The position numbers were made by a program, and so were the translations under genes. 64,000 bases of DNA from a bacterium. Its GTDB lineage: Bacteria > Bacillota_I > Bacilli_A > RF39 > UBA660. The stretch is taken from NCBI GenBank assembly GCA_029100545.1, contig JAQXPH010000031.1, positions 6,267 through 70,266 on the forward strand, in the 5' to 3' direction. Positions 1,731 through 52,360 of the stretch are shown piece by piece. A model generated the notes under the pieces. It saw only the letters and a program-made list of their open reading frames with translations, was not told where the DNA came from and did not search any database. Within the stretch, counting starts at the first letter, position 1, and every line of letters begins with the position of its first letter.

Positions 1731-3977
1731 ATGGAAGAAAAAAATTATAAAAATGTTAAAGTAGTAGCGGTAGTAGCAAGTGCTTTTTTGTTATTTATTA
1801 TTTTCGCGGCAGCATTTGCTTATTTTGGAACATTTAATATTGATTTAAATAATAATGTAGCAGTAAATATTTATGCACAGCAAGGTGGCGCGTCTTCATT
1901 TACAGCAACAGCAGCTCAGCTTAATCTTCAGGTGCCAGCATCTGCGATGAGTCAGTCAAATTCTGAAAGTGGTAATGCAGTACTAGCGGCAGAAAATACA
2001 GCAACATTAAATGTTACATTAAAAGGTGCCGAAGGAATGCTTACAACCTGCACATATAATATTATTTATGAATATGATAATACTTCAGAAACTTATGGAA
2101 ATAGTGTAGCAGTAACAAGTGGAGCAGATAAAGAAATAACTCTACAGGTTAGTGGGGCAAGCAGCACAAGTAATTATTATGAAACAGAAAGAAACTTTAA
2201 TTACTATAGTGGAAGTAATGGAGAAGATACAACTGATGTATGGGAAAGTTCCACCAAAAGATATTTAGTAAAAGAAGCAAAAATAAGTAGTGCAGGAACA
2301 GAAGTAACTTCAGTATGGAATATAACAGGAAGATATTATAATTTAGATGTAAGTCAATCCCAACTAGAAGGAAAAAGTTTTACAGGTAAAATATATGTAG
2401 ATCCAAATTATGATTGTAGTACTAGTGAAGACAAGACACTTTATTCTTTGGTAAGAAAAAAATATAACGAAGGAAATACATTTGTAAAACTTTATGATGG
2501 AGAAGGCTCAGATACCTATGTAAATCCAGTATACTATTATAATGGTGCAGTACAGGATAATAATGTTTTATTTGCAAACTTTTGTTGGAAAATAGTTAGA
2601 ACTACTGATACTGGAGGAGTTAAATTAATTTATAATGGAACGCCAAAAACAACTGCCGAATTAATTCCATTAGAAGAATCACAATATTTAAATTTATCAA
2701 ATGATGCTAGCTACCCATATACATTTGATAGCACTAATAAAACATGGACAAGTACAAATAAAACAGATAGTGCGACAGGTACAATAACTTTTACTGTAGC
2801 AGAAGCAGGAGATTATGTTCTATCATATACTGTTTCTTCAGAGGGAAATTATGATAAAGCAATATTTTATAAAGATGATACAGTACTTGACACTTATAGT
2901 GGTGAAGACAGTGGAAGCATTACTCTAGATGGTCTTACAACCTCAAATGTAATAAAAGTTGAATATACAAAAGATGAATCTGAAGCAAGTGGTAGTGATA
3001 ATGTAGTATTTAGTTTAGGTAAACCATCTGGTAATTCATATTTAAAATGTAATAACACGGGAACTGATTCTCAAATAGGAAAAAGTTCATTTAATAGTAG
3101 TTACACTTCTCCTGCCTATGTAGGCTATATGTATAATACTGTATATACTTCTTCAAATAAATCAATGTCATCATTATCTAATATAGTATTTGGTAATTCA
3201 TTTACATATTCAGGAGGAACGTATACACTCACTGATACAATGGCAGTAGCAACTTTGTCAAGTGGTTATAATACAATAAATAATAATCATTATACGTGTT
3301 TTACTACAGGTACTACTTGTTCGGATTTATATTATGTATATTACACTTCTTCTTATCAGTCATATTATATAACCCTTACGGGTGGTAAATCTGTGGGTGA
3401 TGCTTTAAATGAAATGTTATATGCAGATGATGTAAATAAAACTGATTCTGTTATGAAAACATATATAGAAACTTGGTATGAAAATAATATGACCGCATAT
3501 ACATCATATCTTGAAGATACAACTTATTGTAATGATCGAAGTATAAATGACTTAGGGGGATGGAATCCAAATGGCGGAAGTACAACTGGTTCATCATATT
3601 ATTTACAATTTAAAAATTATAATACAAATTATAGTTTAGTATGTGGTAATGTTACAGATCAGTTTAGAGTAGGAAATACAAAAGCACCACTTAAATATCC
3701 AGTAGGTTTACTTACAGCTCCAGAAGTATGCCTAGCATATAAAGATGCAAGTTATAGTACTTATTATTTAAATACAGGAGAGTATTATTGGCTTGGGTCC
3801 CCTGGCAGCTTTTACGACATCACTGCTTACGGGCGTAACGTCAATAGTTCGGGTAGCATGAGCGTCATCTACCCCGTGTACGATTCTATTGGGGCCCGGC
3901 CGTCCGTTTCCTTAAAACCTGGCACCGGATATATTTCAGGAAATGGGTCATATACTTCACCTTATTTGATAGAATAA
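1731..3977 (+). CDS. DGR variable (target) protein, remote copy, with an N-terminal signal anchor and VR2 at the C-terminus
   Basis: A GGTAGG RBS precedes the start. The N-terminal TM segment ends in the FAYF motif. The C-terminal ~500 aa are about 90% identical to ORF 31567..33732. The GC-rich segment 3786-3912 matches the TR at 33896-34019. Confidence 0.85.
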   Translation: MEEKNYKNVKVVAVVASAFLLFIIFAAAFAYFGTFNIDLNNNVAVNIYAQQGGASSFTATAAQLNLQVPASAMSQSNSESGNAVLAAENTATLNVTLKGAEGMLTTCTYNIIYEYDNTSETYGNSVAVTSGADKEITLQVSGASSTSNYYETERNFNYYSGSNGEDTTDVWESSTKRYLVKEAKISSAGTEVTSVWNITGRYYNLDVSQSQLEGKSFTGKIYVDPNYDCSTSEDKTLYSLVRKKYNEGNTFVKLYDGEGSDTYVNPVYYYNGAVQDNNVLFANFCWKIVRTTDTGGVKLIYNGTPKTTAELIPLEESQYLNLSNDASYPYTFDSTNKTWTSTNKTDSATGTITFTVAEAGDYVLSYTVSSEGNYDKAIFYKDDTVLDTYSGEDSGSITLDGLTTSNVIKVEYTKDESEASGSDNVVFSLGKPSGNSYLKCNNTGTDSQIGKSSFNSSYTSPAYVGYMYNTVYTSSNKSMSSLSNIVFGNSFTYSGGTYTLTDTMAVATLSSGYNTINNNHYTCFTTGTTCSDLYYVYYTSSYQSYYITLTGGKSVGDALNEMLYADDVNKTDSVMKTYIETWYENNMTAYTSYLEDTTYCNDRSINDLGGWNPNGGSTTGSSYYLQFKNYNTNYSLVCGNVTDQFRVGNTKAPLKYPVGLLTAPEVCLAYKDASYSTYYLNTGEYYWLGSPGSFYDITAYGRNVNSSGSMSVIYPVYDSIGARPSVSLKPGTGYISGNGSYTSPYLIE
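3786..3912 (+). repeat. DGR variable repeat VR2 (remote)
   Basis: It aligns with the TR. Most mismatches fall at TR adenines inside AAY codons. It shares the ggcttgggtcccct 5' end and the ggggcccgg 3' GC block, and is 3 nt longer than the TR. Confidence 0.8.
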
Positions 3978-29807: not shown

Positions 29808-29837
29808 TTGACATATAATATTACTTTGTGGTATTAT
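29808..29837 (+). promoter_or_regulatory. candidate promoter of the paralogue/DGR-target operon
   Basis: TTGACA is followed about 18 nt later by TATTAT, which is preceded by TGg (extended -10). It lies about 30 nt upstream of the ATG at 29868. Confidence 0.45.
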
Positions 29838-29867
29838 TTTATTAGAGTAGAGAAAGGTATTTTTATT

Positions 29868-31556
29868 ATGAAATTAAAAGATATAATAATAAAAAATAAA
29901 TATAAATTATTAACAATTATAGGTGTTTTATTAACTTTTTCAATATTACTTGCAATATCTTATGCTTTTTTTGGAAGGGTTATAGAAAATACAAATACTA
30001 ATGCAATATCTGAAATAAATACATCTTATTATTCATTTACTGCAACAGGTGATATCAATATATCACTTACTTTAAATGAAGAATTATTAGGAGTTGAAAG
30101 TGCAAATAATACAGTTCCTGCGTTTACATCAAATGGTGGTAATTTAAATTTAAATTTAACTACTTTAGATAGTGCAAAAGATATTTCTTGTACTTATGAT
30201 ATTGTTTATGAACCAGTTGATGCTATAAATTCCTCAAACAATATAAATGAATTTACAATAGCAGGTGAGTCAACATCTGGTTTATCTTTTAATGAAACTA
30301 ATGTAGTAGGATCAAATCCAGTTATTCTTATATCTAATGCTTTAATTAAGACAAATGCATCTTCTTCACTTACAACATTAGATTCTTGGAATTTTACAAT
30401 TAATTTTTATAATTTAAATGCTATTCAAGATTATATTGTTGGTACAAATATAAGTGGTAATATTAAACTTGAAAATATTAATTGTGGATTCAATAGTAAT
30501 ATAGAGTATGGCTATGAAACTATTCTTACCCAAAATGGAGGAAAAACTGCAATAGAATCAAAAGGTACACCTAACTTTTTAACATATGAAAAAGGAGTAG
30601 TAGGAATGTATGCAGCAGAAGATGACCTTGGAACTTCTTATTACTTTAGAGGAAAAGTTAATAATAACTGGGTAAAATTTGGAAAATATATAAGTGATAT
30701 GTATTATAATTCAAGTGATAAGACATTATATAATGCATGCCCAGCTGGTGGGTCATGTACAAAGATAGCTTCCTCTGGGAATGAAATGTACTGGCGAATA
30801 ATAAGAATAAATGGTGATAATTCTATAAGAATGATTTATTCGGGAGTAACACCGCCATTAGAAACAAAACAATTTGTTATGGAAGATAACAATTATTCAA
30901 TAACAATTGGTTCGACTCCATTTAATACAAGCGGTGATAAATCAGAATATGCGGGATATATGTATACTTTAGGACAGCAACATGGAACAAGTACAGATAG
31001 TACAATAAAAACATATTTAGATAATTGGTATACATTTACAAATCTATCAACATATTATGCAAAAGATTTAATAGCAGATCAAATATATTGTAATGATAGG
31101 AATACATCAAGTACATGGGAATCAACACCCGCTGATATAATGGCTTATTCGTCTGGAGAAAGACTAAGCAATGGAACACCAAGTTTAAAATGTTCAATTA
31201 AAGAAGATAGATTTACGGTAAATGATGTAGTTAATGGCAATGGGAAATTAACCAATCCTGTAGGTTTAATAACGATTGATGAGTTGTTATATGCAGGTAC
31301 TAACCAAGAAAACGCAAATAGTGCATGTTATTTATATACCGGATCAAATTATTGGTCTGGTTCACCATTTGGATTTGTAAAAAGTTATGCTTTTACAAAT
31401 ATTATCAAAGAAGATGGAACTTTAAACGTCGATAGTGTTGAACAGAATATTGGAGTTCGCACAGTAATTTCTCTATCATCTAATGTTAAGTTATATGGTT
31501 CAGGGTTATATAGTAATCCATATGTTATTGAAAATCCAAATTTAGATGTCCAGTAG
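29868..31556 (+). CDS. non-diversified paralogue of the DGR-target family, a secreted or surface protein
   Basis: The signal-anchor segment ends in ISYAFFG. Family motifs are GTSYYFRG, YWRIIRINGDNSIRMIY, YCNDR, PVGLITIDELLYAG, NYWSGSP and GVRTVISL...GSGLYSNPYVI. The region equivalent to the VR is AT-rich. The ORF is open from TTG 29808. Confidence 0.8.
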   Translation: MKLKDIIIKNKYKLLTIIGVLLTFSILLAISYAFFGRVIENTNTNAISEINTSYYSFTATGDINISLTLNEELLGVESANNTVPAFTSNGGNLNLNLTTLDSAKDISCTYDIVYEPVDAINSSNNINEFTIAGESTSGLSFNETNVVGSNPVILISNALIKTNASSSLTTLDSWNFTINFYNLNAIQDYIVGTNISGNIKLENINCGFNSNIEYGYETILTQNGGKTAIESKGTPNFLTYEKGVVGMYAAEDDLGTSYYFRGKVNNNWVKFGKYISDMYYNSSDKTLYNACPAGGSCTKIASSGNEMYWRIIRINGDNSIRMIYSGVTPPLETKQFVMEDNNYSITIGSTPFNTSGDKSEYAGYMYTLGQQHGTSTDSTIKTYLDNWYTFTNLSTYYAKDLIADQIYCNDRNTSSTWESTPADIMAYSSGERLSNGTPSLKCSIKEDRFTVNDVVNGNGKLTNPVGLITIDELLYAGTNQENANSACYLYTGSNYWSGSPFGFVKSYAFTNIIKEDGTLNVDSVEQNIGVRTVISLSSNVKLYGSGLYSNPYVIENPNLDVQ

Positions 31557-31566
31557 AAAGGAATAT

Positions 31567-33732
31567 ATGAAAAATAGAAATATAATATTAAGTGTTATTG
31601 TTTTATTACTTATACTTTGTACAGGTATATCTGTTTCATATGCCTTTTTTAAAATATCTAAAAGTACTCAAGATCCAAATATTACAGTAAATATTGATAA
31701 TGTTCCAGCATGTGTTTCTCTTCAGATGACTAATACTAATATTGTTTCAATTACAAATGAATATGCAGTTCCTATAACAGATGCTAAAGCATTATCTTCC
31801 GATGTATATAAAACTTCTTTTGATGTTATTAATAATTGTGACTCTTCAAAAGATTTAACTATATTACTTGCTCCTACTAATAGTTCTACTATGCCAGTAA
31901 GTGCATTAAAATATGCTTTAGTAGAGCAAAGTGAAGTGCCTTCAAGCGGAACATTAATTTCAGATAAATTAGGTTTAAATAATGGGACAAAACTTGAACT
32001 TAAACAAAAATATAATCAAGATATATCAATAGGTTATAGTGTAGGTAATAAGACAGTACCCGCTAAAACGACTAAAAGTTATAATTTATATTTATGGATA
32101 GATGAAAATGAAGGTGGTCTTGGACAAAATATTACTATGAATAAGTTATTTGAAGGATATATTGTACTTGGTTCAGGTTCGTTAGGAACTCCGCCTACGC
32201 CACTATATGATACTATTCAAGCAAAATATAATGAAGGAAATACATTTGTAAAACTTTATGATGGAGAAGGATCAGATACTTATACAAACTCAGTATACTA
32301 TTATAATGGTGCTGTTGAAGATAATAATGTTTTATTTGCAAACTTTTGCTGGAAAATGGTTAGAACTACCGATACTGGAGGCGTTAAATTAATTTATAAT
32401 GGAACGCCAAAAACTATTTATGAATCTGTTAATCCATTAGAAGAATCACAATATCTAAATCTATCAAATGATGCAAACTATCCATATACATTTGATAGCA
32501 CTAATAAAACATGGACAAGTACAAATAAAACTAATAGTGCAACAGGTACAATAACATTTACTGTAGCAGAAGCAGGAGATTATATACTATCATATACTGT
32601 TTCTTCTGAAAAAAATTATGATAAAGCAATATTTTATAAAGATGGTACAAAGCTTGGCACTTACAGTGGTTCTGTAAGTGGAACAATTAATCTAGATGGT
32701 CTTACAACTTCAAATGTAATAAAAGTTGAATATACAAAAGATTCATCAGCAGCAAGTGGAAGTGATAATGTAGTCTTTAGTTTAGGTAAACCCTCTGGTA
32801 ATTCATATTTAACATGCAATAACACGGGAACTGATTCTCAAATAGGTACAAGTAAGTTTAATAGTAGTTATACTTCTCCTGCATATGTAGGTTATATGTA
32901 TAATACAGTGTATACGTATTCATCTAAATCAATGTCATCATTATCTAATATAGTATTTGGTAATTCATTTACATATTCAGGAGGAACGTATACACTCACT
33001 GATACAATGACAGTAGCAACATGGTCAAGTGGTTATAATACAATAAATAATAATCATTATACGTGTTTTACTACAGGTACTACCTGCCCATCTTTATATT
33101 ATGTATATTATACTAATTCTTCAACTGCATATTATATAACACTTACGGGTGGTAAATCTGTGGGTGATGCCTTAAATGAAATGCTATTTGCTGATGATGT
33201 AAATAAAACTGATTCTGCTATAAAAACATATATAGAAACTTGGTATGAAAATAATATGACAGCATATACATCATATCTAGAAGATACAACTTATTGCAAT
33301 GATCGAAGTATATTAAATTTAAATAGCTGGAATCCAAATGGAGGAGATGTAAGAAGTTATTTACAATTTAAAAATTATAATACAAATTATAGTTTAGTAT
33401 GTGGTAGTGTTACAGACCAGTTTAGAGTAGGAAATACAAAAGCACCACTAAAATATCCAGTAGGTTTACTTACAGCGCCAGAAGTATGGCTAGCTTATAA
33501 AGACGCAAGTTATAGTACATATTATTTAAATACAGGAAATCTTTATTGGCTTGGGTCCCCTTACGACTTCGACTACTATAGTGCAGTCGGGCGTAGCGTC
33601 GATAGTTCGGGTCTCATGAGCAACTACTACGTGAACGACTCTGGCGGGGCCCGGCTGGCCGTTTCCTTAAAACCTGGCACCGAGTATATTTCAGGAGATG
33701 GGACATATACTTCGCCATTTTTGATAGAATAA
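31567..33732 (+). CDS. DGR variable (target) protein, cassette-proximal, with VR1 at the C-terminus
   Basis: The ATG follows an AAAGGA RBS; an in-frame ATG at 31546 is an alternative start. The signal anchor ends in VSYAFF. The family motifs are present. The C-terminal GC-rich segment 33544-33667 matches the TR. Confidence 0.9.
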   Translation: MKNRNIILSVIVLLLILCTGISVSYAFFKISKSTQDPNITVNIDNVPACVSLQMTNTNIVSITNEYAVPITDAKALSSDVYKTSFDVINNCDSSKDLTILLAPTNSSTMPVSALKYALVEQSEVPSSGTLISDKLGLNNGTKLELKQKYNQDISIGYSVGNKTVPAKTTKSYNLYLWIDENEGGLGQNITMNKLFEGYIVLGSGSLGTPPTPLYDTIQAKYNEGNTFVKLYDGEGSDTYTNSVYYYNGAVEDNNVLFANFCWKMVRTTDTGGVKLIYNGTPKTIYESVNPLEESQYLNLSNDANYPYTFDSTNKTWTSTNKTNSATGTITFTVAEAGDYILSYTVSSEKNYDKAIFYKDGTKLGTYSGSVSGTINLDGLTTSNVIKVEYTKDSSAASGSDNVVFSLGKPSGNSYLTCNNTGTDSQIGTSKFNSSYTSPAYVGYMYNTVYTYSSKSMSSLSNIVFGNSFTYSGGTYTLTDTMTVATWSSGYNTINNNHYTCFTTGTTCPSLYYVYYTNSSTAYYITLTGGKSVGDALNEMLFADDVNKTDSAIKTYIETWYENNMTAYTSYLEDTTYCNDRSILNLNSWNPNGGDVRSYLQFKNYNTNYSLVCGSVTDQFRVGNTKAPLKYPVGLLTAPEVWLAYKDASYSTYYLNTGNLYWLGSPYDFDYYSAVGRSVDSSGLMSNYYVNDSGGARLAVSLKPGTEYISGDGTYTSPFLIE
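33544..33667 (+). repeat. DGR variable repeat VR1
   Basis: It is 124 nt and colinear with the TR. About 19 of about 21 mismatches sit at TR adenines, and 14 of the 16 TR AAY codons are altered. It encodes YWLGSPYDFDYYSAVGRSVDSSGLMSNYYVNDSGGARLAVS. Confidence 0.9.
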
Positions 33733-33773
33733 CGCAGTAATAAGTAGGGTGCCAACACTTTACACTAGAAAGT

Positions 33774-33797
33774 CCTCGCGAAAACCCTTTCGCGAGG
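33774..33797 (+). promoter_or_regulatory. GC-rich hairpin in the 3' flank of target gene 1 (cctcgcga(aa)-accc-(tt)tcgcgagg)
   Basis: It is an 8-10 bp GC-rich inverted repeat with a 4-nt loop, about 105 nt downstream of the VR1 end. It is the same as the element at 4020-4043. Confidence 0.7.
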
Positions 33798-33895
33798 CGC
33801 CGAAGTAAAAAAATAACGCTAAGATAAATAAGAGGGAAAAATATTGGGTTAAACATAAAGTTTAATCTAGGATTATGTCGTAATAAAAGTATAGC

Positions 33896-34019
33896 TTTTG
33901 GCTTGGGTCCCCTAACAACTTCAACAACAATAATGCTAACGGGCGTAACGTCAATAGTTCGGGTAACATGAGCAACAACAACGTGAACAACTCTAACGGG
34001 GCCCGGCTGACCATTTTCT
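33896..34019 (+). repeat. DGR template repeat (TR)
   Basis: It is intergenic and GC-rich relative to its surroundings. In the VR frame it reads FWLGSPNNFNNNNANGRNVNSSGNMSNNNVNNSNGARLTIF*, with 16 AAC/AAT codons. Its 3' end (ccattttc) differs from both VRs (ccgtttcc), as expected for IMH* versus IMH. Confidence 0.9.
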
Positions 34020-34193
34020 AATAATAATTTAATCTTTGCTAAATTTATAATATTTAATATTATGGTGAAATTTAGCATTTCATAATTGGAAACAGATATA
34101 ATTCTATGAACTTATGTTCTAAAAATATATGTAGTGTAGGCTATGCTAGTTATTTAATAATTAGCATAGCAATTTATTACTAAAGGATAAAGG

Positions 34194-34550
34194 ATGAATA
34201 GTAATAATGATTTTATTTTATTAAAAAGAGTTAATATATTTAATGATTATATTAATCAGTATGTTGTTTCATTAATACCAAGTGTTCATCGAGATATTAA
34301 AATACATTTGCTTGATGAAAGTTATAATTTACTTAAAAATTTATATGAAGCAATATATAATAAAGGCAATATTAGAAATAAATATATAATAGAACTACTT
34401 GTTTGTATTTCACTTATAGATGGTTTATTAGGTAGTATTATGAAATATAATAAAAATAAACATATTATTAAAGCTATTAATTTATTAACTGATATAAAAA
34501 ATATGACTTATGCATGGAAGGCAAATATTAGTGAAAAAGAAGATAAATAA
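34194..34550 (+). CDS. avd: Avd-like accessory variability determinant (four-helix-bundle protein)
   Basis: The protein is 118 aa, basic and predicted all-helical. Its pattern (...LIPSVHRDIKIHLLDES..LLKNLYEA ... ELLVCISLIDGLL ... LLTDIKNMTYAWK) resembles the four-helix-bundle family found next to DGR RTs. It lies immediately upstream of the RT and overlaps it. Confidence 0.75.
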   Translation: MNSNNDFILLKRVNIFNDYINQYVVSLIPSVHRDIKIHLLDESYNLLKNLYEAIYNKGNIRNKYIIELLVCISLIDGLLGSIMKYNKNKHIIKAINLLTDIKNMTYAWKANISEKEDK

Positions 34551-35997
34551 TATATATTATAAATATTTAACATTTGATAATTTATTAAATTGCTATAATA
34601 TTGTAAAAAAAACTTGTAAGAATAAAAAAGCAATTAATAGATTTGAAATGAATAAATATACTAATATTTATAATATATATAAATCTTTATATAATAAAAC
34701 TTATAAACCATATAAATATACATTATTTATGATATTTGAACCAAAACCAAGACTTGTTATGAGTCAAACTATATCTGATAAAATAGTAAATCATTTTGTA
34801 AGTAAATATTATTTAATACCTTTTTTATCTAATAAATTAATTTATAGTAATGTAGCAACTAGAATAAATAAAGGAACTAAACTTGCAAATAAATTAGTGA
34901 TTAAATATATAAATAATATAAGAATGAATAATAAATTTGAAAATATATATACTTTAAAAATTGATATAAGTAAATATTTTTATAATATTAATCATAAAAT
35001 ATTAATTAATTTATTAAAAAATGATTTTTTAGATAATGATGTAATTAATTTAATTAAAATTATACTTAATGAAACAAATAGTAATTATATAAATGAAAAA
35101 ATTAAAATATATAATCAAAAATATAAATGTGATATACCATTATATAAAAAAGATATTGGTTTAAGTATTGGAGCAATGTCAAGCCAGTTTCTTGCAATTT
35201 ATTATTTAAATAAATTAGATCACTATATAAAAGAAATACTTAATTGTAAATATTATATTAGATATATGGATGATTTTATTATACTAAGTAATAATAAAAA
35301 TTATTTAAAATATGTTTTTAAAAAAATAGAAAAACAAATTAATTATTTTGATTTAAAAGTTAATCCTAAAAGTAATATATATAATTTAAAATATGGAATA
35401 AATTTTTTAGAATATAGATATAAAATAATTAATAATAAGTTTTATATATTATATAAAAAAGGAAATATAAAAAGAATTAATAATAAATTAAAATTTTTAA
35501 AGAAATATGATTTATTAAAATATTATAAATCAAAAGCAAGTTATAATGGATATTTAAAAATAAGTGAAAAGGAATTTAAAATGAAAAGTATTGAAAAATA
35601 TGATTATTATAAAAATAATAATAAAAATGTAATAATATTTATAAAAGAGGGAGTTTTTTATAAAACCTATAATAATGATGCAATTATTATGTGGAATTTA
35701 TTTAAATATAAAATAAATAATAATAATTTATCATTTAGTATAAATACAAAAGATAAAGTTTTTAATTATTTAAATGAATTAAATATAGGTTATTTAGTTA
35801 TAGGTAATGATAATATTTATGTAAAAGGAAATGATGAAGTTTATAATTTATATAATAAGTTATCTAATATTTATTATGATAAATATAATAAAATAAGTAA
35901 GTTAAATGAATTAGTTGATAATTTATTAAATAAAGATATAAATAATTATGAAATTATATTAAATTTTTTAAATAAATTAAAAAAGGAAGTATTATGA
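34510..35997 (+). CDS. DGR-type reverse transcriptase with a C-terminal MutS-domain-I-like extension
   Basis: RT motifs are FEPKPRLVMSQTISDKIV, ATRINKGTKLA and KIDISKYFYNINH. The DGR-hallmark motif 4 is IGAMSSQ and the catalytic box is YIRYMDDFIIL. The start may be GTG 34531 rather than ATG 34510. The C-terminal ~140 aa lie beyond the RT core. Confidence 0.9.
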   Translation: MHGRQILVKKKINNIYYKYLTFDNLLNCYNIVKKTCKNKKAINRFEMNKYTNIYNIYKSLYNKTYKPYKYTLFMIFEPKPRLVMSQTISDKIVNHFVSKYYLIPFLSNKLIYSNVATRINKGTKLANKLVIKYINNIRMNNKFENIYTLKIDISKYFYNINHKILINLLKNDFLDNDVINLIKIILNETNSNYINEKIKIYNQKYKCDIPLYKKDIGLSIGAMSSQFLAIYYLNKLDHYIKEILNCKYYIRYMDDFIILSNNKNYLKYVFKKIEKQINYFDLKVNPKSNIYNLKYGINFLEYRYKIINNKFYILYKKGNIKRINNKLKFLKKYDLLKYYKSKASYNGYLKISEKEFKMKSIEKYDYYKNNNKNVIIFIKEGVFYKTYNNDAIIMWNLFKYKINNNNLSFSINTKDKVFNYLNELNIGYLVIGNDNIYVKGNDEVYNLYNKLSNIYYDKYNKISKLNELVDNLLNKDINNYEIILNFLNKLKKEVL

Positions 35998-36857
35998 AAG
36001 AAATTAATAATTTTGAAGAATATCTTAAATATGAACTTAATTATTCAGATTATACTATTAAAGAATATATTTTACATGTAAAAGATTTTTTAAAATATTT
36101 AGAAAATAATAAAATAAATTATTTAAATATTAATAAAGAAGATATTATAAAATATTTAAAATATTTAGATAATGAAAAATTATCAAATAGAAGTATTGGA
36201 ACAATACTTTCTAGTTTAAGATGTTTTTATAATTATTTACTTGATAATGGTTTTGTTAAAGTAAATATATTTAAACTTATTAGTAATCCTAAAATGGATA
36301 AAAAACTACCTAATTTTTTATCATATGAAGACTTGCAAAAAATACTTGATAGTATTACAGATAAAGATGTTTTATCTTTAAGAAATAAAATGATTATAGA
36401 ACTTTTATATGCCACTGGAATAAGAGTTAGTGAACTAATTAATATTAAAATAAGTGATATTGATTTTAATAATAAAACTATTAAAGTAATGGGTAAAGGT
36501 AAAAAAGAAAGAATTGTCTTTTTTGGAGATTATGCTTTAGATGCAATAAATATTTATTTAAAAAATAATCCTTATAATAATGAGTATTTAGTTTTAAATA
36601 GTAAAGGAGAAAAAATTACTGTTAGGGGAGTAGAACTTATTATTGAAAAAATAAGTAAAATGGCATGTATTAATAATAATGCTCATCCTCATACATTTCG
36701 TCATACTTTTGCTACTCATATGCTTAATAATGGTTGCCCACTTAAAAGTGTTCAAGAATATTTAGGCCATAGTTCATTATCTTCTACTGAAGTATATACT
36801 CATATAACTAATGATTATATTAAAGAAGAATATTTAAAAAATATACCTAGAAAATAG
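35994..36857 (+). CDS. tyrosine site-specific recombinase, XerC/XerD-like
   Basis: The ATGA start/stop overlaps the RT. The N-terminal core-binding domain is followed by catalytic residues in ATGIRVSEL, GKGKKER, HPHTFRHTFATHML and LGHSSLSSTEVYTH. Confidence 0.85.
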   Translation: MKEINNFEEYLKYELNYSDYTIKEYILHVKDFLKYLENNKINYLNINKEDIIKYLKYLDNEKLSNRSIGTILSSLRCFYNYLLDNGFVKVNIFKLISNPKMDKKLPNFLSYEDLQKILDSITDKDVLSLRNKMIIELLYATGIRVSELINIKISDIDFNNKTIKVMGKGKKERIVFFGDYALDAINIYLKNNPYNNEYLVLNSKGEKITVRGVELIIEKISKMACINNNAHPHTFRHTFATHMLNNGCPLKSVQEYLGHSSLSSTEVYTHITNDYIKEEYLKNIPRK

Positions 36858-36867
36858 TTTTTTAAAA

Positions 36868-36959
36868 AAAGTGGGCCGAAAAATGTGATAATTAAGATAA
36901 AAAGTCCTCCTAAAAATGTGATAGTTTTGTAGTAAAGTGGTCAAAAAAATGTGATAATT
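36868..36959 (+). repeat. three direct repeats (~26 nt, AAAGTsssssnAAAAATGTGATArTT) spaced exactly 33 bp apart
   Basis: The units start at 36868, 36901 and 36934. Each contains an extended -10-like TGTGATAAT or TGTGATAGT. Confidence 0.75.
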
Positions 36960-37154
36960 TATATATAGGATGTTTTAATGAAAAAAATAGTTCTGTGTAT
37001 AGTATAAGATTATCTATCAAAAATTTTGGAATTATTAATGGTATTAAATCAATTCCATTATATGCTGTCTTTTGTATAAAATAATATTAAAATATTTCTT
37101 GTAAAAAAGTATTTAATATTATATAATATGATAGAAAAAAGAAAGGAAAATATT

Positions 37155-49834: not shown

Positions 49835-52360
49835 ATGAAAAGATGTGAAGTAGATAGAAATAAATTGAGTCCAATGATGGCTCAATATATGGAAATTAAA
49901 GATAAATATCCTGATACATTATTATTTTATCGTTTAGGAGATTTTTATGAACTTTTTTTTGAAGATGCTTTAATTGCCTCAAAAGAACTGGAGTTAACTT
50001 TAACTGGTAGAGTAGCGGGACTTGATGAAAGAGTCCCTATGTGTGGTGTTCCATATCATGCTGTAAAAAGTTATATTGAAAAAGTAGTAAATAAAGGATA
50101 TAAAGTTGCAATTTGTGAGCAACTTGAAGATCCAAGATTTACTAAAAAAATGGTAAAAAGGGGAGTTACAGATGTAATTAGTAAAGGAACAATTGCTGAT
50201 TTAGAACTTCTTGATTCTCATAATAATTCATTTGTGGCATCATTATTAGAATATCCTGATCTATATATTTTAACAATGCTTGATATTTCTACAGGTAGTT
50301 TATTAAGTAATAAAATTTTAAAAAATGTTAATACTTTAGGTAATCAAATAGTTAAATATCAAATAAAAGAAATTGTTTTAAAAGATAATACTAATGCTAA
50401 TTTAATTAATGAATTAAAAAATAAATATAATGTTGATATTGATATTTGTCCGTATGAATTAGATAAAATTAATTCATTAATTGAAAATAAACTTTCTGAT
50501 GTAAGATGTGTAATTGGTGTAAAACATTTATTTTATTTTTTAATAAACACTCAACTTAAAGATTTATCTTCAATTGAGGATATTACTATTATTAATAATC
50601 AAGATTATTTATATATGGATGATTATTGTATAAATAATTTAGAATTAGTTCAAACACAAAGAAATAAATCTCGTGAGTTTTCACTATTATGGCTTTTAGA
50701 TAAATGTAGAACTGCTATGGGAAGTAGAAAACTTAGAAATATGCTTCTTAATCCTTTAAAAGATAAAGAACTTATTAATAAACGTTATGATATGATTGAA
50801 AAATTTAATAATGAATTTATTTTAAAAGATAAACTTATTACTAATTTAAATGAAATATATGATATAGAACGATTAACAGGAAAAATTACTAATGGTAGTT
50901 TAAATGCAAGAGATTTATTACAATTAAAAAGAAGCTTAAAACCACTTCCTGAAATTAAAGAAATAATAGATAAATTAAATTTTAATATTGAAATTGATAC
51001 ATTTGAAGACATATATAATTTACTTGAAAAAGCAATATATGAAGATCCACCAATAACACTTAAAGATGGTTATTTAATTAAAGATGGCTATAATAATGAT
51101 TTAGATGATTTAAGAAATATTAAAAAAAATGGTAAAGATTATATTGCAAAATTTGAATATGAAATTAAAGAAAAAACAGGAATAAAAAATCTTAAAGTTG
51201 GTTTTAATAAAGTTTTTGGTTATTATATTGAAATAAGTAAAGGACAAGCAAAAGATGTTGCTGAAAAATTTGGCTTTGAAAGAAGACAAACATTGGCTAA
51301 TTGTGAAAGATTTATTTCAAAAGAATTAAAGGAAAAGGAAGATCTTATATTAAATGCTGAAGAAAGAATAATTGATTTAGAATATGAACTTTTTATGGAA
51401 ATTAAAAAAGAAATAAAAAAATATGTTCCAAAACTTAGAAATACATCAGATAGTTTAAGTTATATTGATGTTATGAGTAACTTAGCAAATCTAGCTGAAA
51501 ATTTAAATCTAGTAAGACCACTTATTAATGATAATCACACAATTGATATAACAAGTGGTTGGCATCCTGTTGTTAAAAATACTTTAAAAGATGAATATGT
51601 GGAAAATGATTGTAAAATGGATGAAAAAACTTCAACATTATTAATAACAGGCCCAAATATGAGTGGTAAATCAACTTATATGAGACAAATTGCTATAACA
51701 ATTATTATGGCTCAAATAGGTTCTTTTGTACCTTGTAAGAAAGCTAGCCTTCCTATTATAGATAAAATATTTACTAGAATTGGTGCATCTGATGATTTAG
51801 CTGGTGGTCAAAGTACATTTATGGTAGAAATGAGTGAAGCAAACAATGCTATAAAAAATGCCACTGAAAATAGTTTGATTTTATTTGATGAATTAGGTCG
51901 TGGTACGGCAACTTATGATGGTATGGCTCTTGCTCAAAGTATAATTGAATATATTAATGAGAATATTAAATGTAAGACTCTTTTTTCAACTCATTATCAT
52001 GAACTTACTATTTTGGATAGAAAATATAATTCAATTAAAAATGTTCATGTAGATGCATCATTAAATGGCAAAGAATTGATATTTTTGCACAAAGTAAAAA
52101 ATGGTTCAATAGATAAAAGTTATGGAGTTCATGTCGCTTTTTTAGCAGGACTTCCAGATAAATTAATTGAAAGAGCTAATGAAATATTAAATACATTAGA
52201 AAATAAGTCTAATAATAAATGCTCATCAACTCAATTATCTTTTGATTTTGATGAAAAAAAAGAAGAGAAAAAAGATTATTTAAAAGATATTGATATAAAT
52301 AATATTACACCAATTGAAGCATTAAATATTCTTTATAAAATAAAAGAAGATAATAAATAA
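49835..52360 (+). CDS. mutS: DNA mismatch repair protein MutS
   Basis: Domain I carries GDFYELFFEDA, Walker A is GPNMSGKST, and STFMVEMSE and DELGRGT are present. Confidence 0.97.
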   Translation: MKRCEVDRNKLSPMMAQYMEIKDKYPDTLLFYRLGDFYELFFEDALIASKELELTLTGRVAGLDERVPMCGVPYHAVKSYIEKVVNKGYKVAICEQLEDPRFTKKMVKRGVTDVISKGTIADLELLDSHNNSFVASLLEYPDLYILTMLDISTGSLLSNKILKNVNTLGNQIVKYQIKEIVLKDNTNANLINELKNKYNVDIDICPYELDKINSLIENKLSDVRCVIGVKHLFYFLINTQLKDLSSIEDITIINNQDYLYMDDYCINNLELVQTQRNKSREFSLLWLLDKCRTAMGSRKLRNMLLNPLKDKELINKRYDMIEKFNNEFILKDKLITNLNEIYDIERLTGKITNGSLNARDLLQLKRSLKPLPEIKEIIDKLNFNIEIDTFEDIYNLLEKAIYEDPPITLKDGYLIKDGYNNDLDDLRNIKKNGKDYIAKFEYEIKEKTGIKNLKVGFNKVFGYYIEISKGQAKDVAEKFGFERRQTLANCERFISKELKEKEDLILNAEERIIDLEYELFMEIKKEIKKYVPKLRNTSDSLSYIDVMSNLANLAENLNLVRPLINDNHTIDITSGWHPVVKNTLKDEYVENDCKMDEKTSTLLITGPNMSGKSTYMRQIAITIIMAQIGSFVPCKKASLPIIDKIFTRIGASDDLAGGQSTFMVEMSEANNAIKNATENSLILFDELGRGTATYDGMALAQSIIEYINENIKCKTLFSTHYHELTILDRKYNSIKNVHVDASLNGKELIFLHKVKNGSIDKSYGVHVAFLAGLPDKLIERANEILNTLENKSNNKCSSTQLSFDFDEKKEEKKDYLKDIDINNITPIEALNILYKIKEDNK

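Follow-up and report, generated by a model that had tools for sequence, protein, structure and literature searches.

The window analysed here is a 64,000-nucleotide stretch of DNA (contig JAQXPH010000031.1 of assembly GCA_029100545.1, positions 6,267 to 70,266, forward strand) from a bacterium of the GTDB lineage Bacillota_I; Bacilli_A; RF39; UBA660. It contains a diversity-generating retroelement (DGR) whose reverse transcriptase (RT) is encoded by an open reading frame (ORF) at 34510..35997 on the plus strand, the strand that also carries the target genes, repeats, accessory gene and host mutS discussed below. Counted from the first ATG the ORF specifies 495 residues; the database gene call (P0006), of 488 residues, implies initiation at the GTG at 34531, seven codons further on. 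The RT core and thumb (34510..35580, residues 1-357) are followed by a MutS domain I-like core (35581..35829, residues 358-440), delineated by Pfam, hhalign, AlphaFold2 (AF2) with Foldseek, and conservation, and then by a two-helix hairpin that, with the stop codon, occupies 35830..35997 (residues 441-495). The data presented below leave very little doubt that residues 358-495 are an MSL (MutS-like) DGR accessory protein fused in frame to the RT: the module has a minimal MutS_I fold in which the Phe of the mismatch-recognition motif is kept and the Glu is lost, in sister lineages it is a separate gene of ∼135 codons directly after, or sometimes before, the RT gene, and a Shine-Dalgarno (SD) motif and start codon lie at the junction.

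As a system the element is of a known type, and the feature has already been described. Wu et al. 2018 (NAR 46:11, PMC5758913), which is the survey alluded to in the original prediction made from these sequence letters, introduced MSL as a new accessory gene, present in 16 DGRs and invariably accompanied by avd, and also described three related RTs that contain a MutS_I motif in a C-terminal extension. MSL is also listed in a 2021 review. The gene described here is another member. The present analysis adds that the extension is equivalent to MSL over its full length, establishes how large the fused clade is and in which hosts it occurs, and points to a Glu that is systematically exchanged for Lys or Arg and to a ribosome-binding site conserved within the fused genes.

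MutS domain I homology of the RT extension

The ORF contains the motif IGAMSSQ, which conforms to the [LIV]GxxxSQ signature of the DGR RT clade, in combination with YMDD (YxDD), and the Pfam family RVT_1 covers residues 79-287 (E 2.8e-13). A full-length AF2 model of the 495-residue protein has a predicted local distance difference test (pLDDT) score of 91.6. The best match to the fold of the RT part in the PDB is the Bordetella phage DGR RT, 8ub7 (E 2e-18, template modelling score 0.84 on the target), with group II intron RTs ranking next. These data confirm the earlier identification of the protein as a DGR RT, which is intact. The boundary proposed at the same time, which placed the end of the RT core at about residue 330, was too early, as RT plus thumb extends to about residue 350 in the model.

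The original prediction also held, from an alignment made by eye, that the region beyond the core resembles the mismatch-binding domain I of MutS. The peptide quoted in its support (MKSIEKYDYY...GYLVIGND) is present exactly in the ORF, where positions 35581-35814 encode residues 358-435. Pfam MutS_I (PF01624) matched the whole ORF with 22.9 bits and the C-terminus alone with 24.7 bits, both above the gathering cut-off of 20.6 bits. The match spans residues 361-405 and profile positions 4-48 of 113. The same family was recognised independently in the extensions of 42 of 47 diverse relatives (E <= 0.01; best 1.7e-7), which are mostly below about 62% pairwise identity in this region, and no other Pfam family recurs among the 47. 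The MutS encoded by the host (49835..52360, 841 residues) is a canonical mismatch-repair protein with MutS_I (1.3e-43), MutS_III, MutS_IV and MutS_V domains. When the family profile of the extension was compared with the N-terminus of this protein, the same sequence that had been used in the alignment by eye, hhalign aligned 36 columns with a probability of 87% and a score of 39.8.

Structure prediction supports the same view. The AF2 model of residues 340-495 is confident (pLDDT 92.1, predicted template modelling score (pTM) 0.79) and displays, in order, a short N-terminal helix that belongs to the RT thumb and linker, a helix, a β-hairpin, a helix, a strand, a helix, two strands and two long helices. 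The top 50 Foldseek matches of this model in the PDB are all MutS, MSH6 or MSH3 proteins (best E 7e-4), with a root mean square deviation (rmsd) of 1.3-1.8 Å over 69-79 columns. The earlier delimitation of the extension, at residues 358 to about 437, captured the MutS_I-like part but not the end, as the module reaches residue 495 and includes a hairpin that lies outside the MutS_I match.

The original prediction had itself pointed to low-complexity composition as an explanation that would undo the homology, and the possibility that the resemblance arose by chance, from the richness in Asn, Lys and Ile of a gene with 15% GC, derives some encouragement from the weaker lines of evidence. BLASTP of the extension against the host MutS returned 27% identity over only 33 residues (E 0.007), the Pfam match is partial, and a search of PDB sequences with the profile of the extension found MutS at E 0.28-1. 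The real hhalign score, however, is ∼13 standard deviations above the scores of 150 shuffles of the MutS sequence (11.0 ± 2.2, maximum 20.2), and composition is therefore no explanation of the match. As the relatives that match MutS_I vary in composition, and the predicted fold finds MutS proteins exclusively, chance similarity is refuted and retains a negligible probability. The top match of the profile search against PDB sequences, MG218.1 (E 0.0055), fell on the low-complexity helical tail and was treated as chance. Recent capture of the 5' end of the host mutS was also rejected, since the similarity is just ∼25% over the 36 columns.

In the hhalign register, Phe383 (35656-35658) falls on the Phe of the GDFYE motif of MutS, and Lys385 (35662-35664) falls on the Glu, in agreement with the substitution noted in the original prediction. 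We take these positions to be F36 and E38 in E. coli MutS numbering, which agrees with the presence of E38 mutant entries among the fold matches. In MutS the Phe wedges against the mismatched base, while the Glu discriminates between mismatches and licenses repair. The Phe-x-Glu mismatch-recognition motif is therefore incomplete in the RT extension, with Phe present and Glu replaced, and this is a general property of the family: across 268 members the position of Phe383 is occupied by Phe in 246 and Tyr in 13, while the Glu38 equivalent is Lys in 154, Arg in 22 and Glu in only seven. The best-conserved residues of the module are K379, G381, F383 and Y384, which correspond to the DNA-contacting hairpin of MutS, and K368, K379, K401 and K416 are at least 90% conserved among fused members. 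The MutS_I-like core is basic, with an isoelectric point (pI) of 9.25 compared with 6.6 for domain I of the host MutS.

The Pfam scan of the RT ORF identified only MutS_I and none of the domains MutS_II to MutS_V. The protein is thus not a MutS; the connector, lever, clamp, ATPase and dimerisation domains are absent, and a module that lacks these repair domains cannot signal or start repair. Compared with domain I of MutS and MSH proteins (E. coli MutS 1e3m, Taq MutS 1ewq and human MSH6 2o8b), MSL shares the fold and the Phe-bearing GxFY hairpin, but differs in the change of Glu38 to Lys or Arg, in a shortened loop before the third strand, which is long in MutS, and in the addition of a helical hairpin. 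In contrast to full-length MutS and MSH proteins, the absence of domains II-V leaves it with neither an ATPase nor a dimer clamp. The hairpin, comprising helices 442-475 and 479-494 (pLDDT >90 in the AF2 model), is conserved in stand-alone MSL proteins to profile position 157 and lies outside the MutS fold matches. In the model, residues 358-495 (138 residues) thus consist of a minimal MutS domain I fold to which a two-helix hairpin peculiar to the family is appended. Isolated MutS_I folds also occur among small proteins of uncultured gut phages annotated as 'MutS domain I' in BFVD (A0A8S5PL02, 74 residues; A0A8S5L9N2, 84 residues; A0A8S5PPT8, 153 residues), which Foldseek superimposed on the module with an rmsd of 1.1-2.9 Å and 15-29% identity, the best at 1.1 Å over 72 columns with 29% identity. 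Searches of phage and plasmid collections with the MSL module by tblastn gave no match.

Fused and split relatives and a putative internal start

When a hidden Markov model (HMM) built from the extension was run against 1.84 billion cluster representatives, it matched 994 at E <= 1e-3, of which 328 were at E <= 1e-10. Among the best 150 of the 994 matches, 117 are proteins of 100-160 residues, mostly 130-140, and the majority of these begin at the equivalent of Met358 and run to the end of the profile. A further 12 of the 150 are RT fusions, 11 of about 470-515 residues and one of 423. One of the stand-alone proteins, P0138 (137 residues), is encoded 5 nt after a 377-residue DGR RT that has bAvd upstream. 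The extension is thus homologous over its full length to proteins of ∼135 residues, one of which resides in an avd-containing DGR cassette. Small MutS domain I-like proteins encoded in Avd-containing cassettes have been described previously as stand-alone MSL (Architecture D of Wu et al. 2018, Legionella, and the Bacteroides elements Bfr, Bth and Bun), and we infer that these Legionella and Bacteroides proteins and the module are members of one family. The module differs from them in being translated within the RT ORF, although a free form may be made as well. By their published description, the three fused RTs of Wu et al. 2018 resemble the protein described here, being DGR RTs with an extension of ∼150 residues after the thumb and weak similarity to MutS_I; here the fusion constitutes a large family found mostly in uncultured gut Bacilli.

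The fusion is widespread. Of the 120 best homologs of the RT, 117 carry the extension (48-66% identity, ∼485-515 residues), which answers the call in the original prediction for a survey of related RTs, so that the RT-MSL fusion is represented by at least 117 clusters at 90% identity. Genomic context was explored in 81 loci, consisting of the window and the best 80 matching loci from species-representative genomes scanned with the full-length alignment. MSL is present in 61 of these loci, with an uninterrupted RT-MSL frame in 45, whereas in about a dozen it is a separate gene downstream or upstream of the RT gene. Uncultured Bacilli from the gut of humans, ruminants and rabbits, which carry the labels Mycoplasma, Tenericutes or Erysipelotrichaceae, make up most of the hosts. 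In three loci (L076:592-1066, L083:221-653 and L090:682-1156) the MSL gene precedes the RT gene, and the position of the module in the cassette is therefore not fixed.

In a neighbour-joining tree of the RT cores of these loci, the window is within one large, uniformly fused clade. A sister clade (L052-L066), mostly metagenome-assembled genomes of Candidatus Saccharibacteria, has RTs of 40-47% identity that end at about residue 350-390, and no MSL was detectable in its fetched flanks. A third clade contains a mixture of split-downstream, split-upstream and a few separately fused lineages. As fused and split states alternate on the tree, fusion or fission has occurred several times.

Individual relatives illustrate this variation. 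In L002, which is 52% identical, the gene order is target, Avd and RT-MutS_I. Its RT-MSL cassette (L002:7555-13488), in which the target has VWA domains, is directly upstream of SpaA-type pilin and sortase genes, suggesting that this DGR diversifies a pilus-associated adhesin. In L009, where RT and MSL are split, an extra ORF of 131 residues without a Pfam match (L009:3475-3870) lies between bAvd and the RT gene. The near-identical relative L001 (L001:731-2184, ENA ERZ28573628 scaffold_16440) is 95% identical and has a 13-bp deletion at the equivalent of 35364-35376 in the window, which shifts the RT frame after ∼281 residues. Either this copy of the DGR is dead or the assembly is at fault. 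Because of this deletion the MSL part is entered in the database as a separate 138-residue protein. We rejected this apparent separate gene as a gene-calling artefact of the RT frameshift, as the frame from thumb to MSL is still open.

The junction between RT and MSL resembles a translation start. In the window the sequence AAGGA (35569..35573), an SD-like motif, is 7 nt upstream of the in-frame ATG of Met358 (35581). The codon equivalent to Met358 is ATG, GTG or TTG in 38 of the 45 fused genes. At -18 to -3, 39 of the 45 have an SD-like motif of 4 nt or more and 24 have one of 5 nt or more; the corresponding rates over all remaining codons in the RT part of these genes are 10.3% and 2.8%. For comparison, SD motifs precede 25 of 38 genuine gene starts in the window. 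The purine motif is maintained although the linker residues encoded by this region are variable (ERN, EGV, KEI, KGE, EKR, QKED and YGGV). Where Arg is encoded at the junction, the ratio of AGG to AGA is 20 : 3, compared with 103 : 490 elsewhere (Fisher p 2.8e-12, an optimistic value as the sequences are related). In one fused locus, L013, the start codon has been lost (ATA), and the motif has been lost too. In the split relatives, SD and ATG precede msl, and where the frame is readable (L009 and L082) the RT stop codon is between them. The retention of the SD motif and start codon at the fused junction suggests that free MSL may be made in addition to the fusion protein.

The DGR cassette and its surroundings

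The remainder of the cassette lies upstream of the RT gene. The target gene (31546..33732, 728 residues) encodes a protein with an N-terminal hydrophobic segment, for which the Pfam scan gave no family, and contains the variable repeat (VR1, 33546..33667) in its last 60 codons. The 122 nt of VR1 align to the template repeat (TR, 33898..34019), which has 37 adenines. TR and VR1 differ at 21 positions, 19 of which are TR adenines and two elsewhere. Such an adenine-site pattern in a repeat pair whose VR ends a target gene is expected of a DGR. A putative Avd-like accessory gene (34194..34550, 118 residues, pI 9.1) occupies the position of avd. Its product is 49% identical (E 9e-32) to that of a 121-residue gene at the same position in L002, for which precomputed matches to bAvd (PF22296) are only faint or weak, and it weakly resembles the clear bAvd of L009, while a direct Pfam scan of the 118-residue protein gave no match. 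The cassette resembles the Bordetella phage BPP-1 system (bRT-Avd, 8ub7) in its RT core and thumb, its adenine-specific TR/VR pair and probably its putative Avd-like gene, but differs in that bRT, at ∼328 residues, has no MSL module.

A second, remote target gene (1731..3977, 748 residues) is 85% identical to the first over 513 residues and contains VR2 (3788-3912), ∼30 kb upstream of TR. VR2 differs from TR by 18 mismatches at TR adenines, six elsewhere and a 3-nt insertion. As six of the changes are not at adenines and an insertion is present, VR2 may be decaying or no longer addressed. Directly upstream of target gene 1, and overlapping its start, is an ORF of 582 residues (29808-31556) that shares with it the C-terminal motif GLxTxxE...YWxGSP and a 49-nt stretch of 73% identity. 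No match to TR was found in this ORF, which looks like a target paralog without a VR.

Downstream, a gene for a XerC/XerD-type tyrosine recombinase (35994-36857) overlaps the RT stop codon with its ATG (ATGA). The same overlap is found in L001 and is absent from more distant relatives such as L002. A direct repeat of 41 nt (36859-36899 and 36925-36965, 78% identity) containing TGTGATAAT separates the recombinase gene from that of trigger factor, and may be a duplicated extended -10 promoter element. Trigger factor is followed by murJ-like and relA genes, which places the DGR in a neighbourhood of chromosomal housekeeping genes and not within any evident prophage. The GC content of the window is ∼22% and reaches its minimum, 14.8%, in the interval that contains the avd-RT-MSL genes (34001-36000), in contrast to ∼33% in the adjacent VR/TR region (32001-34000).

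Candidate roles of the MSL module

The explanation that best accommodates these data is that MSL protects the products of retrohoming. Retrohoming would create a distorted, mismatch-dense duplex, most likely the cDNA:VR heteroduplex, to which the module would bind. MSL, tethered to the RT and probably also free from the internal start, would occupy sites that the host MutS would otherwise recognise, and adenine-derived substitutions could then escape an all-or-nothing reversal by mismatch repair (MMR). Taken whole, we judge this explanation to have slightly less than an even chance of being correct. Its central step, in which the module binds the mismatch-dense heteroduplex and keeps the host MutS off, is put forward a little more tentatively still, on the grounds of homology, fold and motif conservation. 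The presence of a canonical mutS in the host (49835..52360) counts in its favour. In the Bacteroides Bov DGR, deletion of mutS increased VR mutagenesis 5-10-fold without a change in the substitution pattern, indicating that the heteroduplex is repaired in an all-or-nothing manner (10.1101/2024.11.15.621889). The same study lists Msl in three Bacteroides DGRs (Bfr, Bth and Bun), among which Bov is not included. To raise DGR editing in E. coli, mutS is deleted or MutL is poisoned. The ideas that the module binds heteroduplexes and shields them from repair, also raised in the original prediction, are speculative but would be consistent with the 5-10-fold lowering of mutagenesis by the host MutS in Bacteroides. 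A more elaborate version, in which the locus is a nested two-product gene that makes the 495-residue fusion and a free 138-residue MSL, the latter a MutS decoy that coats the adenine-derived mismatches of cDNA:VR with a Phe wedge lacking the licence for repair, seems rather unlikely in its entirety.

Several points weigh against this explanation. Most DGRs function without MSL. Loss of the Glu38 equivalent could mean the loss of all mismatch specificity, and sequence similarity to MutS is limited to ∼45 residues, the remainder of the match resting on predicted structure. The geometry between the two domains is uncertain, as the RT-MSL linker has a pLDDT of ∼75 and the full-length model a pTM of 0.72. 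No mutL was seen in the window, in which only the gene just after mutS was scanned with Pfam. The literature searched contained no binding or genetic study of any MSL protein. Furthermore, retrohoming of the Bordetella phage reportedly proceeds without mutS (PMC5758913), which also had no effect on an E. coli reporter with an 18-nt insertion, showing that interference by MMR is not universal.

Other roles for the module must be weighed against protection of the heteroduplex. It may act during cDNA synthesis, gripping the TR-RNA:cDNA hybrid as it leaves the RT and aiding processivity, mismatch extension or hand-over of the cDNA. The fusion point directly follows the thumb helices (residues 335-349 in the AF2 model), at the site from which group II intron and DGR RTs, in their structures, release the template-primer duplex, and the conserved Phe wedge and basic residues, as well as the constant association of the module with Avd-type cassettes (PMC5758913), fit such a function. 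Many lineages, however, encode the module on its own, in some cases ahead of the RT gene, and tethering to the RT is therefore not essential. Mutagenised cDNA is also produced by the Bordetella bRT-Avd without any MSL, and we regard a role in cDNA synthesis as improbable, although worthy of consideration. A somewhat lower likelihood still is assigned to the view that the module is a protein-protein adaptor for the host MutS, MutL, the replisome, Avd or RT, which poisons repair or localises the complex and for which the MutS_I fold is a mere scaffold. The conserved hairpin (441-495), which has no counterpart in the MutS matches, resembles an interaction element, and the occurrence of Trp395 in 116 of 129 fused forms compared with 40 of 117 stand-alone forms hints at an interface with the RT. 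The best conservation, by contrast, is found in the residues of the DNA-contacting hairpin of MutS, and domain I of MutS is not known to serve as a partner-binding surface.

The fusion itself may be incidental. In that case a stop codon that once separated RT from msl would have disappeared, free MSL made from the internal SD and ATG would be the active species, and the RT would simply tolerate the tail. The frequency of the SD motif (39 of 45) and start codon (38 of 45) in fused genes, the bias towards AGG, the RT stop between SD and ATG of msl in the split loci L009 and L082, and the alternation of split and fused states on the tree are all in keeping with this possibility. Against it, a deep clade, in which RT identity falls to ∼48%, keeps the frame open across an AT-rich and stop-prone linker, and L056, L062 and L065 are without the SD motif yet still fused. 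We consider an incidental fusion to be a minority possibility, and it is in any case compatible with the protective role proposed above for MSL itself.

The significance of the module lies in the step at which it may act. How the mutagenised cDNA becomes fixed in the target gene is the chief unsolved step in DGR biology, and recent work shows that the host MutS is able to erase a whole DGR event. Natural variants in fused and split form, together with F383, K385 and the internal start, provide clear handles on the function of MSL, which may also serve DGR-based directed-evolution tools, for which MMR must at present be switched off. A MutS domain I that keeps the wedge, lacks the repair-signalling parts and is joined to the RT in hundreds of DGRs of gut bacteria is an obvious candidate for a built-in anti-repair or heteroduplex-handling factor, and the role of MSL is relevant to the way in which DGR heteroduplexes avoid repair.

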